Shown in pieces: positions 5,586 to 26,129 of a stretch of 64,000 nucleotides of DNA. Below the pieces are notes generated by a model. It searched no databases. It had not been told where the DNA came from and was given only the letters and a program-made list of their open reading frames with translations. The stretch comes from a virus, in UHGV virus genome UHGV-0054069. One strand, 5' to 3'. A program made the position numbers and the translations under genes. Positions within the stretch are counted from its first letter, which is position 1. The number at the start of each line of letters is the position of its first letter.

Positions 5586-5626
5586 CAAGTCGCCGCAACG
5601 GGGCAAATAGCCCCAGACACCTTTAC

Positions 5627-5650
5627 AGCCCCTTAGATGGGGCTTTTTTA
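5627..5650 (+). terminator. rho-independent terminator
   Basis: AGCCCC-TTAGAT-GGGGCT followed by TTTTTT; ends the plus-strand early array. Confidence 0.7.
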
Positions 5651-5997
5651 CGTCTATGAGATAGAACTCTATACAGAACCCTTCCTAGAATCTTACCAGA
5701 CCTTTAGAACAATAACTCTATAGCTTACTCTATATCATCTTATCAAGTCAACTACAATATAAGCCCATAACCCGAAAGGGAAGGGCAATCCCTAAAACGC
5801 TCTATAACGCTCTATACGGGCTTATCATCTCATCTTAAGCAATCATATTAACCCACTCTAAAAAGCCCTTTATAGAGCTTTCTAGAGCCTTAAAAGAATC
5901 TTATAAGGGTATAAGCTTTATTATCTCGTTAGTATCTTGTGAATGGTTAAACAGGGGCTTGAAAGTTACTTAATAATGTGTTATGGGGAACTAAAAA

Positions 5998-6063
5998 GAG
6001 CTTAAAAGTAACGTAAAAGATGCTTAAAAGTAACGTAAAAGATGCTTAAAAGTAACGTAAAAG
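5998..6063. repeat. 3 tandem copies of 22-bp unit CTTAAAAGTAACGTAAAAGATG
   Basis: copies at 6001-6022, 6023-6044, 6045-6063 (third truncated). Confidence 0.85.
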
Positions 6064-6119
6064 TTAGCCCCCTTTACATTCTCTTAACAAAATCTTAACA
6101 AATGCAACATAGTTATGCT

Positions 6120-6600
6120 TATTAGAGACTTGTTAGCCCCTTGTTAAATCCTTGTTAGAGGTATGTTAAGAGCTTGTTAGACTCTTTGAAGTCCCTGTAT
6201 AAGCCCCTAGAAAGCCCTATAAAGAGCTATACAGGTAGTTGGGGTGTAGTTACTAGGGAGAACCTTAGAAGAGGCTATACAGAGCTACAGAGAGCTTTTA
6301 AGAGGGCTTTATAGAGAATCACTAAGAAGGGAAGGGAACTATAGACCAAGAGATAGTGACCATGTTAATAGTTTGTTAAAAAGGTTTAGAACTTGTTAGC
6401 ATCTTGTTAATTATCTTAACAAAATAACTCTTAAGATTTAACTATTTAGCAACTTATAAGCAACTTGTTAGACTCTTGTTAGTAATGTTACAGACTTGTT
6501 AAGCTCTTGTTAGTTCTGTTAAGAGACTGTTAAGGACTTTGAAGAGATGTTAAGAGCTTGAGAGAGTTGTTAAGAGATTGTTAATGATATTTTAAGATTT
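6120..6600. repeat. iteron-like arrays of CTTGTTAG / GTTAAG motifs at roughly helical spacing
   Basis: over 20 copies at about 10-12 bp spacing in two blocks (6130-6180, 6400-6600); no ORFs. Confidence 0.7.
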
Positions 6601-7189
6601 TGCAAAGGGGATGTTACAGGGCTGTTAAGGGCTACTAAGCAGATATACACCCTTTGTAGATATTTTTCAGATACTCCCAAGAACCTAAAAAGTGACCTAC
6701 CTAGTCTATTTTATAAAAATTTTATAGAACTGAATAACTATCTATACACTATCTTCTATAAAACAGGTAATAACAGGCTTATAAGATATCTTGTTAGTAA
6801 CGTGTTAGACCTTGTAGGATAAGCCTTTACAGGGAATACCTGTTTAGTGTTATATAACAGTCTATATAGAGGCTTAGTAATACCTAGTGATTCTGCTATA
6901 TAGGGTACTATCATTTACCTAGAGATTAAGATGGGTATAGGGGCTTCTAAGGGGGTAGAAAGAGGTTAGGAAGGTGATTGTATAGGGTTGATTAATGGTA
7001 GGCTTAGAAGGCTTTATAGAGGGATATATAGAGAGCACTATTTAGGGACTAAGATGCTATATAGATACTATATAATACTATATAGAGATGATGCTTAGAG
7101 AGGGTGTTTAGAAGGGTATAGATATTTTATCACATATCATGGTGACCCAAGATGAACGGAGTGAATCCCAAATTTTATAAAAATTAAAA

Positions 7190-7232
7190 AGCCCCTATGA
7201 GATAGATTCTATCGAATCCATTTTAAGGGGCT
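7190..7232 (-). terminator. candidate terminator (long-loop hairpin + T-run on minus strand)
   Basis: AGCCCCT..AGGGGCT with nested GATAGA/TCTATC hairpin; A-run on plus strand; just past stop of gene 7242..7913. Confidence 0.4.
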
Positions 7233-7241
7233 AAATATTAA

Positions 7242-7913
7242 TCAACACAAATTCTCTATGATTACTTGAATAGCTTGTTTTGTGGTATGGAAGAAGTGTG
7301 TAAAACCAGTACTGCTCTCTGTAACTTGAATCATAATCTGTGAACCCTTAACCGGATAAGTTTGTAAGCGGTAATGATTACCATTGATTACAATAGAGCC
7401 ACCTTCACCAATATGATTCAAATGTGTGATATCAACAAATTCTTCTTTGCCTGTGACCCTGATACAAACACCTTTGTTCACTCGTGAAGGGTTAATATCT
7501 TCCATAAATAGCATTATCTGTCCACCAAGAGACATCATAGAGACTTCTTTACGGTTCTGCTGTTTAACATACATCTCAAGTTTCTTCAAAGTATCTTCAT
7601 AGAACGGATAAGACTTCTTGACAAAGATACCTTCAAGTGGCTCTTTACCTGAGTCTTCTCGTTCCATCTTAAGTCGATTAACAAGTAATTCTAAAGACCA
7701 CTTCTCACTTTCATCAAGATATGTATTGATATCATCTAGACTCAGTACCAGATACTTTCTTTCAAGTTCAAACTTTTTCATCTCTATCAAATCCTTAAAA
7801 CATTTCTTAGTAATTGCTTCCCATTCTTCGGAGTTCTTCCGCTTCCTCTTCAGATGGGGAACCATATCTGTTAAGTTCTTCCAACTCTTCTTCAGTAGGT
7901 GTACCATAATCAC
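7242..7913 (-). CDS. hypothetical protein
   Basis: long ORF in minus-strand block. Confidence 0.55.
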   Translation of the reverse strand: MIMVHLLKKSWKNLTDMVPHLKRKRKNSEEWEAITKKCFKDLIEMKKFELERKYLVLSLDDINTYLDESEKWSLELLVNRLKMEREDSGKEPLEGIFVKKSYPFYEDTLKKLEMYVKQQNRKEVSMMSLGGQIMLFMEDINPSRVNKGVCIRVTGKEEFVDITHLNHIGEGGSIVINGNHYRLQTYPVKGSQIMIQVTESSTGFTHFFHTTKQAIQVIIENLC

Positions 7914-23033: not shown

Positions 23034-24650
23034 TTGCAGAGGTGCTTAATGGACTTAAATGTTATTAAGCAGAAGCGAGTGGAAGATGTAAGGAAAGTCC
23101 TAGCAGGTGAGTTGGGGCTTTCTGAAGAAGTAAAAGATATTATCAAATCCTTTGGTAAAGACCCCTCTAAATTCCTTCCAACTCAAATTCTGACTTTATT
23201 AAGGTACACCCCAGACCAAGTAAGACTCATCTTTAAATTGATGACTGACAAGAACTATGTAGCTCCACAGCCTGGCTCTCAAGAAGTATTCTTGAATACC
23301 AATGCTGACTTGGTGTTATATGGTGGTGCTGCTGGTGCTGGTAAGACTGCTGCCCTTTTAATGGACTCTTTGAGATTCATTGATGACCCTAACTATAACG
23401 CTGTATATTTCCGTCGAAATACTACACAGTTACAAGGTGGTTTATGGCCAGCAGCTAAAAAGCTATTTGGTAAGTTTGGTGGAATCCCACACGAACAGAA
23501 AATGACTATTACGTTCCCTTCAGGAGCGACTATTAAGTTTACTTATTTGGAACTTGAAAAACACTCAGAAGGTCACCAAGGTATCGAATACTCAGCTATT
23601 TACTTCGACGAAGGTACACACTTCTCGGCTTCACAGATTTCATATCTTCAGACACGTTTACGTTCTGGTGCTGAAGGTGACTCATATATGAAGATTTCCA
23701 TGAACCCAGATAGAGACCACTTTATTTACGATTGGGTAGAACCATTCCTAGATGAAGAAGGTTATCCAGACCCGTCTAAATGCGGTAGGATTCGTTGGTA
23801 TGTTATGAGTGATGGTGTAATGGTTTCTGATTGGGACAAGAATAAGATTCTTGAAATGTTCCCTCTAGAGATTCCTCAAACATATACCTTTATTTCTGGT
23901 ACGATTGATGACAACCCAATTCTTGATTTCTTAGAACCTAAGTATCGTGGTAAATTGGAAAACAATACACCAGTTAACGTTGCTCGTCTTCGTTTTGGTA
24001 ACTGGAAAGCTCGTGCAGAAGGTTCAAACTATTGGCAAAGACAATGGTGTGAGATTGTTGATAGTGTTCCAGCAGACGTATTTGATGTTCGTGCTTGGGA
24101 CTTAGCAGCAACATTACCCTCAGAAGTTAACCCTAATCCTGACTGGACAGCAGGTGTGAAAATGGGTAAATCTAAAAAAGATGGTTGCTATTATGTAATT
24201 AACGTAGTAAGATTTAGAGATAGACCTTCTGGAGTTGAAACACAAATTAATATGACTGCTGAAGGTGATGGTAAACGTACTGGTATTTTTATCCCACAAG
24301 ACCCAGGCGCTGCTGGTAAATCCTACGCAACATCTCTTATTAGAAAACTTGCTGAGAAAGGCTATAGAGCAAGAGCTAAACCTACCAATAAAGATAAAGT
24401 TACCCGTTTTGCGGGTTTCTCTGCTGCTTCAGAAGCTGGTCTTGTTAAAATTGTTAGAGGCTCTTGGAATGAAGCTTATTTCCAAGAACTAGAAGGTTTT
24501 TGTGGTGATGGTCGTACTAAGGATGACCAAGTGGATGCTACCAGTGATGCTTTCAACAGTCTTAATGAAGTTAAACTATTCAAGCCACCTTCAATGGGTA
24601 CTCATACAGATATTGTAAGAAGTAATCCATACGAAGGGCTGAGATTCTAA
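23034..24650 (+). CDS. terL: terminase large subunit
   Basis: Walker A LYGGAAGAGKT; size and position before portal; start may be ATG 23049. Confidence 0.8.
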   Translation: MQRCLMDLNVIKQKRVEDVRKVLAGELGLSEEVKDIIKSFGKDPSKFLPTQILTLLRYTPDQVRLIFKLMTDKNYVAPQPGSQEVFLNTNADLVLYGGAAGAGKTAALLMDSLRFIDDPNYNAVYFRRNTTQLQGGLWPAAKKLFGKFGGIPHEQKMTITFPSGATIKFTYLELEKHSEGHQGIEYSAIYFDEGTHFSASQISYLQTRLRSGAEGDSYMKISMNPDRDHFIYDWVEPFLDEEGYPDPSKCGRIRWYVMSDGVMVSDWDKNKILEMFPLEIPQTYTFISGTIDDNPILDFLEPKYRGKLENNTPVNVARLRFGNWKARAEGSNYWQRQWCEIVDSVPADVFDVRAWDLAATLPSEVNPNPDWTAGVKMGKSKKDGCYYVINVVRFRDRPSGVETQINMTAEGDGKRTGIFIPQDPGAAGKSYATSLIRKLAEKGYRARAKPTNKDKVTRFAGFSAASEAGLVKIVRGSWNEAYFQELEGFCGDGRTKDDQVDATSDAFNSLNEVKLFKPPSMGTHTDIVRSNPYEGLRF

Positions 24651-24662
24651 TAGGTAGAAAGA

Positions 24663-26129
24663 ATGGCAGATATCACAGAAACACAAGAAAGCCTTCCTCC
24701 ATTCAGAATGGGTGAGGTTGGGAGTCTTGGCCTTAAAGTTCGTTCAGGAAGAATCTATGAAGAACCTAGACAGGCTTTAAGATTCCCAGAAAGTATTAAG
24801 ACTTTCCAACTTATGATGCGAGACCCAGCAGTAGCTGCATCTGTGAACATTATTAAAATGTTTGTCAGAAAGGTTAACTGGAGATTCGTACCACCGAAGG
24901 GTAAAGAGAAAGATGCGAAGCTAATTGAAAGAGCAGAGTTCTTCAACTCATTAATGAATGACATGGAGCATGATTGGGCTGACTTTATTAACTCTGTTAT
25001 GTCATTCTGTACTTATGGCTTCTGCGTAAATGAAAAGGTTTATAAGAAACGTCAAGGTAAGAAAGGTAAATATCCTTCCAAGTACAATGATGGTTTAATT
25101 GGTTGGGCTAAGTTACCAATCAGAAATCAGTCAACACTGGATAAGTGGTATTTTGACGCTGACTACAGAAAAGTTACTGGAGTTAGACAGAACCTGAGAA
25201 ATGTCTCTTATATTACTGGTGCAATTAATCTTGCAGAACAACCATTGACAAGAAAACTCCCTAGAAGTAAATTCTTGCTATTCAAGTACGATGATGAATA
25301 TGGAAACCCAGAGGGACGTTCACCACTCCTTAATGCTTATGTACCTTGGAAATATAAGGTTCAGATTGAAGAGTATGAAGCAGTTGGTGTATCAAGAGAC
25401 TTAGTGGGTATGCCTAAGATTGGTCTTCCACCAGATTATCTGGATGAGAATGCAGAACCTGAAAAGAAAGCTTTCGTGAAGTATTGCAAAGATATCGTGA
25501 ATGATTTAATTGCAAATGATAGAGCAGGTATTATCTGGCCTAGATTTATCGACCCAGAAACTAAAGAAGATATCTTTGAGTTCTCATTAGTTTCTAGACA
25601 GGGTGCTAAGGCTTATGATACAGGTTCAATCATTGACAGATATTCTAAGCAGATTATGATGGCCTTTATGTCAGATGTTCTTGCTATGGGACAATCAAAA
25701 TATGGTTCATTCTCTTTGGCAGACTCTAAGACAAGCTTGTTAGCAATGTCTGTAGATATTCTTCTGAAGCAAATCAAGAACGTTATTAACCGTGACCTAG
25801 TAGCACAGACTTACGCTCTGAATATGTGGGATGACGAAGAACACGTTGAGATTGTTTATGATGATATTGAAACTCCAGACCTAGAAGCTATTGGTGCTTA
25901 TATTCAGAAGACCGTTGCAGTTGGGGCTATGGAAGTTGATAAGCCATTGTCTGATAAGTTAAGAGAACATATTGGTTTACCACCTGCTGATTCATCTAAA
26001 CCTGTATCTGAAGAATTATCTCCTAACACTCAAAGTCGTTCTGGAGATGGTTATAAGACTGCTGGAGAGGGAACTGCTAAGACTCCTTCAGCAAAAGACC
26101 CAAGTACAGCTAACAAGGCAAACAAATAA
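24663..26129 (+). CDS. portal protein (putative)
   Basis: 488 aa directly after TerL and before prohead protease. Confidence 0.55.
   Translation: MADITETQESLPPFRMGEVGSLGLKVRSGRIYEEPRQALRFPESIKTFQLMMRDPAVAASVNIIKMFVRKVNWRFVPPKGKEKDAKLIERAEFFNSLMNDMEHDWADFINSVMSFCTYGFCVNEKVYKKRQGKKGKYPSKYNDGLIGWAKLPIRNQSTLDKWYFDADYRKVTGVRQNLRNVSYITGAINLAEQPLTRKLPRSKFLLFKYDDEYGNPEGRSPLLNAYVPWKYKVQIEEYEAVGVSRDLVGMPKIGLPPDYLDENAEPEKKAFVKYCKDIVNDLIANDRAGIIWPRFIDPETKEDIFEFSLVSRQGAKAYDTGSIIDRYSKQIMMAFMSDVLAMGQSKYGSFSLADSKTSLLAMSVDILLKQIKNVINRDLVAQTYALNMWDDEEHVEIVYDDIETPDLEAIGAYIQKTVAVGAMEVDKPLSDKLREHIGLPPADSSKPVSEELSPNTQSRSGDGYKTAGEGTAKTPSAKDPSTANKANK

Follow-up and report, generated by a model that had tools for sequence, protein, structure and literature searches.

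What is the function of a long gap between genes in the virus genome UHGV-0054069? The DNA examined here, to which we refer as the window, is a stretch of 64,000 nucleotides of this genome, and it contains between positions 5650 and 7240 a 1.6-kb region that is devoid of sizeable open reading frames (ORFs) and dense in short phased repeats. An earlier note, prepared from the sequence alone, had listed a replication origin, a partition site and a packaging-recognition region as options for such a locus. We conclude, with a probability of roughly two in three, that the region is the collapsed concatemer junction of a linear genome with short direct terminal repeats (DTRs), and that its phased arrays serve cutting and packaging of the DNA. 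The packaging option from the earlier list is supported by homology to mapped DTRs from boundary to boundary, whereas an origin received no positive support and a partition site is implausible in a virulent DTR phage. Signals for cutting and packaging are thus more likely here than a replication origin.

Predicted terminal repeat and genome ends

The region 5650-7240 matched 255 phage records, nearly all of them Ounavirinae with few exceptions, and its top DNA match was Citrobacter phage Michonne (Mooglevirus) with 94.6% identity. Judged by these matches, the source is a virulent Felix O1-like myovirus of the Ounavirinae (Mooglevirus-like) whose genome measures about 88-90 kb. Short DTRs are known in Felix O1-like phages, both from experiments in a neighboring genus and from annotation in several records. 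PhageTerm classes these phages as having a T7-type DTR (PMC6454146, PMC8928762), with lengths of 581 bp for Pr103Blw (PMC8303462) and 613 bp for Ro111lw (PMC6454146). For UAB_Phi87 a DTR of 608 bp was shown by time-limited Bal31 digestion and run-off sequencing (PMC4837284), and the DTRs of Kolesnikvirus are about 440 bp long (PMC8928762).

Exact terminal repeats were found in the records of SeKF_63 (613 bp), E9 (580 bp) and Pr103Blw (581 bp), which come from three laboratories. These repeats have identical boundaries, starting with GCCCCCTTAACA and ending with TTAAGGGCTACC, and the two ends align to positions 6067 and 6636 of the window. The segment 6067-6636 aligned end to end with the three repeats and with the annotated DTR of UAB_69; the UAB_69 annotation, together with the matching length class, was used instead of the UAB_Phi87 record (JN225449), which opens elsewhere than its DTR. 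When the 570-bp segment was used as a query, records of different laboratories began exactly at query position 1 and ran to position 569. A sensitive search returned several relatives' records that begin or end inside the homologous region, as well as one that is annotated as "short direct terminal repeat region" in the homologous stretch. Furthermore, conservation of the boundary sequences extends over 10 phages from the genera Mooglevirus, Suspvirus and Felixounavirus. Because of this homology to mapped terminal repeats with matching boundaries, positions 6067-6636 were assigned as the predicted DTR of this phage, 570 bp in length and present as a single copy. By the same alignments, 5650-6066 is predicted to be a non-coding tail at the right end of the genome and 6637-7240 a non-coding leader at its left end. 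The predicted repeat shares its boundaries, and its position between the same terminal gene blocks, with the DTRs of UAB_Phi87, Pr103Blw, Ro111lw, SeKF_63, E9 and UAB_69, and with 570 bp it falls in one of the shorter length classes. In the Kolesnikviruses of Erwinia and Hafnia only the block of TGTTAAG motifs, which corresponds to array B described below, was alignable, and this block lies inside their DTRs of about 440 bp. The start of the record of Pseudomonas phage PaP1 was also considered for comparison and discarded, since it carries genes and is not comparable.

No second copy of 6067-6636 occurs in the 64-kb window, which indicates that the sequence stems from a circularized or collapsed assembly. 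The flanking gene blocks converge on 5650-7240, as stated in the earlier note; in the linear genome they form its two terminal blocks, which each read outwards and were joined by circularization of the assembly. The two terminators that had been noticed at the flanks were also found. The rightward block ends with an intrinsic terminator on the plus strand (5627-5650), in which a stem-loop at 5627-5644 is followed by a T-run. The leftward block ends with a hairpin and U-run on the minus strand (about 7185-7232; −22.8 kcal/mol, z = −3.47). Both terminators are annotated at homologous places in Michonne and Moogle. The rightward gene block ends at the physical right end of the genome.

The lack of ORFs of at least 60 amino acids, which had drawn attention to the region, was confirmed: the longest ORF within 5650-7240 has 52 amino acids (6756-6914, minus strand). 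The gap between ORFs of at least 70 amino acids measures 1657 nt and is the largest of the window apart from the tRNA cluster. Stop codons are not enriched: the six frames contain 282, where dinucleotide shuffles gave 288 ± 9, and the longest run free of stops extends over 82 codons (shuffle mean 64). The GC content is 34.3% versus 39.0%. The absence of ORFs is what the composition of the region predicts, and is remarkable only in comparison with the coding density of the phage.

Short hypothetical ORFs are annotated in this region in some GenBank records (Michonne gp111, ESh19), and a region that encodes a non-coding RNA or small proteins would account for them. The sequence of the window does not bear this out. 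No Rfam match was found in the region up to E = 1 with gathering and permissive thresholds, the 3-nt periodicity of coding DNA is absent from 5650-7240, and there is no excess of promoters in a region that is enclosed by two terminators pointing inwards. Conservation tracks 6-nt motif cores, described below, rather than a reading frame, and the ORF annotated in Michonne is unmatched among the ORFs of the window. We therefore consider an RNA gene or small proteins very improbable. Michonne gp111 (L001 6910-7110, corresponding to about 6620-6820 of the window) is annotated as a hypothetical protein inside the junction, as also occurs in the ESh19-22 records. This was the case that was checked: it falls within repeat DNA, none of the ORFs of the window corresponds to it, and it probably reflects an error of annotation. 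Short "hypothetical proteins" annotated inside the junction can be flagged as doubtful.

Phased arrays and their conservation

Two motif families, the first with more than 20 phased copies, had been noticed in the region, and both were recovered. The motif TGTTAR occurs in 21 copies on the plus strand and three inverted copies within 5650-7240, giving 24 copies where about three are expected; the shorter TGTTA is present 25 times against 3.0 expected and CTTGTTAG eight times against 0.06. The second family, TATA[ACG]AG, has 10 forward and nine inverted copies, 19 in all. The TGTTAR sites are at 6131-6175 with a spacing of exactly 11 nt, at 6363-6623 with a best period of 10.3 nt (R = 0.89), and at 6792 and 6803. 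Both blocks pointed out earlier are thus real, but their coordinates had been drawn slightly too narrowly: the second block covers 6363-6633 instead of 6400-6600.

The spacing of these motifs corresponds to a helical period that is unique to this region within the window. Base autocorrelation reached 0.372 at lag 10 and 0.385 at lag 11, whereas controls averaged 0.26 and did not exceed 0.29; further peaks followed at lags of about 21-22 and 31-32. The helical signal in sliding windows of 400 nt was 0.187 in this region (z = 9.2) compared to a maximum of 0.069 elsewhere in the 64 kb. Pairs of AG dinucleotides show a four- to five-fold enrichment at distances of 10 or 11 nt and none at other spacings. 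The midpoints of inverted 8-mer pairs peak at 6290-6340, close to the DTR midpoint at 6351, and this bin contains 22 inverted pairs where block shuffles gave 10.9 ± 2.6; none of 300 shuffles reached 22.

The predicted DTR is built of a short array, a central block and a long array between two boundary sites. Array A (6120-6190, plus strand) consists of five CTTGTTAR units at an exact spacing of 11 nt (R = 1.00 at period 11.0) and of degenerate units to their left and right. It is followed by a central block of TATAAAG, TATACAG and CTAGAAAG units (6195-6320), where the centers of the inverted 8-mer pairs of the whole junction peak. Array B (6363-6633, plus strand; best period 10.3 nt) has 14 TGTTAR copies along with degenerate units (TGTTAC, TTTGAAG, TTTTAAG), and contains a non-repeat element AAGATTTTGCAAAG at 6594-6607. 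Outside the repeat, the right-end subterminal flank (5650-6066), which is unique non-coding sequence, is built of 10-11 nt units of the CTCTATA, CTTTATAG and TCTTAAG types, mostly opposite in orientation to those of the other flank. Its last part is a 22-bp tandem repeat AAAAGATGCTTAAAAGTAACGT in 3.2 copies (5994-6063; TRF score 133, 97% matches), which abuts the left DTR boundary. The left-end subterminal non-coding flank (6637-7240) has TATAGAG and TTAGAAG units, a G-rich plus strand, and the TGTTAG copies at 6792 and 6803. The CTCTATA-type units of the left flank and the TATAGAG-type units of the right flank have opposite orientation and opposite strand composition.

In comparisons across three genera, the parts of the junction were 76-96% identical to the window, the right-end flank 77-95% and the left-end flank 76-95%, whereas the four genes on each side were 48-93% identical. 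In a comparison with six phages of the other genera, core positions of TGTTAR in the DTR had a conservation of 91.5%, compared to 73.2% at all other DTR positions (p = 4e-11); the spacers between the cores vary freely. The length of the DTR varies in steps. Records of 43 relatives fall into classes of 558, 568-9, 578-80, 589-90, 600-2 and 611-3 nt, separated by 10.5-11.5 nt, and further relatives have DTRs of 623-5 and 633 nt. It is as if the DTR, over the range of 558-633 bp in about 45 related phages, gained or lost whole helical-turn units of about 10.7 bp. Outside the left boundary, relatives lack 21 or 43 nt in the 22-bp tandem repeat.

Such changes by whole units, the variable copy number of the 22-bp repeat and the freely varying spacers would also be expected if only the two cut sites were functional and the arrays were satellite-like DNA that changes by replication slippage at the gene-free ends of the genome. 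Under neutral slippage of this kind the cores should not be significantly more conserved than the spacers, nor the junction more conserved across three genera than the genes that flank it. Moreover, Kolesnikvirus has kept the TGTTAAG units in their order and spacing, although the remainder of its junction is unalignable. We therefore give satellite-like arrays only a small chance, ranking below that of the replication origin discussed further on.

The most divergent junction compared was that of Erwinia phage phiEa21-4, which aligns with the window over only about 130 nt at about 73% identity. Its non-coding junction of 1.19 kb has a lag-11 autocorrelation of 0.369 and contains 14 copies of TGTTAA, eight of them when counted as TGTTAAG, most of which are in the DTR with a similar spacing pattern. 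The right-end flank of this phage (L006 1125-1680) is occupied by a different phased unit, CTTCTAA, in 14 copies of one orientation. The replaced flank unit, set against the TGTTAAG retained in the DTR, suggests two recognition specificities of which only one is conserved across genera.

The direct repeats, more than 20 in number and helically spaced (periods of 11.0 and 10.3 nt), lie in an AT-rich region (34.3% versus 39.0% GC) that is strongly conserved, and they could also be iterons, at which a phage initiator would open a nearby AT-rich stretch. Some DTR phages have origins near an end of the genome. The similarity to the iteron origins of lambda and of plasmids is in the helically phased direct repeats of an AT-rich intergenic region, but the units here are contiguous and about 11 bp long instead of 17-22 bp, and the repeats coincide with the genome ends. 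Neither DnaA boxes (with at most one mismatch) nor an IHF consensus were found in 5600-7300. The adjacent genes belong to PHROGs of unknown function without a significant Pfam match, and none is a recognizable initiator. The earlier note had suggested cumulative GC skew as a check. Calculated over the 64-kb window, the skew flips sign at each switch of transcription (about 7, 15, 46 and 56 kb); it follows transcription direction, so that it gives no origin signal and is unusable for locating an origin in this phage. Since the repeats coincide exactly with mapped genome ends, their presence and conservation are already explained without an origin, and we regard it as unlikely that the region is or contains one.

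The arrays could finally bind a host or phage protein that has no part in packaging, with end protection from exonucleases, pausing of DNA entry or silencing of readthrough as possible roles. The tandem arrangement in units of 10-11 bp is reminiscent of sites for OmpR/PhoB-type regulators, and about 1 kb of phased, AT-rich non-coding DNA lies at each physical end. In phage T5, according to a preprint (bioRxiv 10.1101/866236), a large repeat-rich non-coding stretch inside the terminal repeat acts as an injection stop signal. The T5 terminal repeat, however, is about 10 kb long and carries genes, and two-step injection by Felix O1-like phages was not reported in the literature searched. The region contains no PhoP, PhoB or OmpR consensus boxes, and sigma-70 promoters are not in excess (five found, 8.0 expected). 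Such a role of the arrays is improbable. A search for the Chi consensus also returned no site in the region.

Boundary sites and proposed processing of concatemers

The assignment of the region as a packaging junction directs attention to the two places where the DNA would be cut. The left boundary site (6052-6103, plus strand) reads ...ACGTAAAAGTTA^GCCCCCTTTACATTCTCTTAACAAAATCTTAACAA, with the putative cut (^) between 6066 and 6067 (± 3 nt); it contains the motif YTAACA, in inverted orientation, twice (6084 and 6095). The right boundary site (6604-6652, minus strand) reads ...GTTAAGGGCTACT^AAGCAGATATACA with the putative cut between 6636 and 6637 (± 3 nt); on the minus strand it is CTGCTT^AGTAGCCCTTAACA, which resembles the left site. 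The consensus is ...G(T/C)TA^GCCCCCTT(T/A)ACA...TCTTAACA for the top strand at the left and ...CTGCTT^(A/G)GTAGCCCTTAACA... for the bottom strand at the right. Over roughly the last 50 nt of each end, the local inverted similarity score is 36 in the window, compared to 19.9 ± 4.0 in shuffles, and the inverted similarity is clearer in the Erwinia phage. Both boundaries may represent one site in two orientations.

A processing scheme can be proposed that would connect the arrays to these sites. Replication would produce concatemers with a single DTR copy between genomes. The terminase, as TerL with a recognition factor, would assemble on the phased TGTTAR arrays and on the flank units of CTCTATA and TATAGAG type, which have opposite orientations; with units one helical turn apart, the bound protein would lie on one face of the DNA or have the DNA wrapped around it. 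The two inverted boundary sites would then be nicked on opposite strands, and strand-displacement or fill-in synthesis over 570 bp would provide each daughter genome with its own DTR copy. Duplication by staggered nicks is the scheme classically proposed for T7. A change of DTR length by whole units would fit slippage of the arrays, and would also keep the cut sites in rotational register.

By comparison with known systems, the junction appears to most resemble the T7/T3 concatemer junction in function and, more loosely, lambda cos. In T7 and T3 a 160-bp terminal repeat is flanked by the SRL and SRR arrays, with pac sites. The junction arrays of T7 were reportedly described by Dunn and Studier in 1983. 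Shared features are a short exact DTR, short-repeat arrays at the junction and the need for duplication of the repeat during concatemer processing. There are also clear differences. The arrays found here fill the DTR itself as well, with a period of 10-11 bp and a span of 1.6 kb, and the enzyme is a Terminase_6 type in a myovirus that is not homologous to T7 gp19. Furthermore, right-end formation in T7 uses a promoter and an origin, whereas there is no promoter excess at the junction described here. Lambda cos combines the nick site cosN with cosB, which has R sites for the small terminase and a bend induced by IHF. The likeness lies in repeated recognition elements beside symmetric nick sites, putative in the present case, with one nick in each strand. 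The nicks would here be about 570 bp apart instead of 12 bp and give a filled-in repeat rather than cohesive ends, and there are about 24 core repeats instead of three and no IHF consensus.

Terminase and a candidate recognition subunit

The enzyme expected to act on the junction is the large terminase subunit TerL, encoded at 23034-24650 (plus strand; Pfam Terminase_6N and Terminase_6C, PHROG 979) and followed by a Mu-type portal gene at 24663-26129. The protein is about 95% identical to the TerL of Felixounavirus (FO1a, EcSzw_1) and 68% to that of Kolesnikvirus. The TerL of Felix O1-like phages falls in a DTR cluster (PMC4837284), and the TerL found here shares its clade with enzymes of phages that have DTR ends.

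According to published reports, Felix O1-like phages possess a large terminase only, with no small terminase (PMC3185647, PMC4837284). A candidate for this subunit, or for another recognition factor, is a 123-aa protein with the Pfam domain DUF5681, encoded at 15483-15854 on the plus strand. It is carried by 297 phage records and, among the matches listed, was annotated only as "hypothetical" or "DUF5681". Distant homologues on unrelated metagenomic contigs (P0045, P0046, P0050, P0053) are encoded directly upstream of TerL, with overlapping or abutting genes. Of seven distant homologues examined, these four are next to TerL, while P0041 is 2.4 kb upstream of TerL and a Mu-type portal gene, and one contig is too short to tell. 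The family has an invariant basic N-terminal motif, KG.SGN..GRP.G..N, and the predicted structure (pLDDT 68) shows a disordered N-terminus followed by two long helices. As judged from sequence and gene neighborhood, the DUF5681 protein may be the "missing" small terminase or recognition factor of Felix O1-like phages, and we consider it a reasonable lead. Searches of PDB sequences with the DUF7217 protein and the 223-aa neighbor gave no significant match (best E = 0.95).

A more far-reaching proposal, which we put forward as a tentative possibility, is that the whole 1.6-kb junction forms one nucleoprotein scaffold. About 150 helical turns would be bound or wrapped by an oligomeric DUF5681 small terminase, and the inverted nick sites, about 570 bp apart, would be held in a fixed register. 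With the rotational register fixed in this way, the DTR could change its length by whole turns only. If true, the complex would bring about Watson-type staggered-nick duplication of the repeat, and it would be the first defined recognition system for a DTR-packaging myovirus without a recognizable small terminase.

Several observations weigh against the packaging interpretation or its parts. The DTR of this phage is predicted from homology, no Mooglevirus record among those examined has the repeat at both ends, and the cut sites given for different genera or annotations vary by 1-4 nt. The similarity of the boundary sites is modest, with the score of 36 lying within a shuffle maximum of 37. 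The stepwise DTR lengths could come from slippage alone. The link between the arrays and terminase is a putative one. The assignment of the DUF5681 protein rests on gene neighborhood, its gene is here 7 kb upstream of TerL, and the distant homologue P0051 is not beside a terminase gene. A Foldseek search with the DUF5681 model gave no significant match, and small terminases appeared only among the weak ones.

The phased arrays, the genus-specific flank motif, the stepwise lengths, the inverted boundary contexts and the DUF5681 candidate appear to be undescribed in the literature searched. The Felix O1 genome paper gives other direct repeats and not this region, and the PhageMaP study of Felixounavirus Bas63 has nothing on this intergenic region. 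For practical use, the junction shows where genomes of this phage group should be opened and how they should be oriented; many deposited records were opened arbitrarily or lack the repeat. It would also provide the cis element for packaging or transduction vectors in a group that is widely used in biocontrol of Salmonella, E. coli and Shigella. The way in which DTR myoviruses recognize and duplicate their ends by means of terminases is poorly understood, and a conserved junction with a core motif, stepwise lengths and a candidate protein makes this question testable by simple experiments. The junction is thus a modestly interesting and readily testable system that holds no surprise.

The relationships of the junction and of the terminase genes point to mosaicism. 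The junction is closest to that of Michonne (94.6%) and only 86% identical to that of ESh21, but ESh21 has nearly the same TerL (99.8% identity) and DUF5681 protein (99.2%). A 119-aa ORF (8418-8777, plus strand) within the minus-strand gene block is probably spurious. Close to the DUF5681 gene, a Ro60-like RNA-binding protein (PHROG 850; DUF2828 and DUF7788) is encoded at 15864-17348 (plus strand), just upstream of the tRNA cluster. This cluster (17514-22597) gave 23 tRNA matches in Rfam and matches to tRNA only; the PhageMaP preprint speculates that some of the "tRNAs" of Bas63 could be Y-RNA-like.

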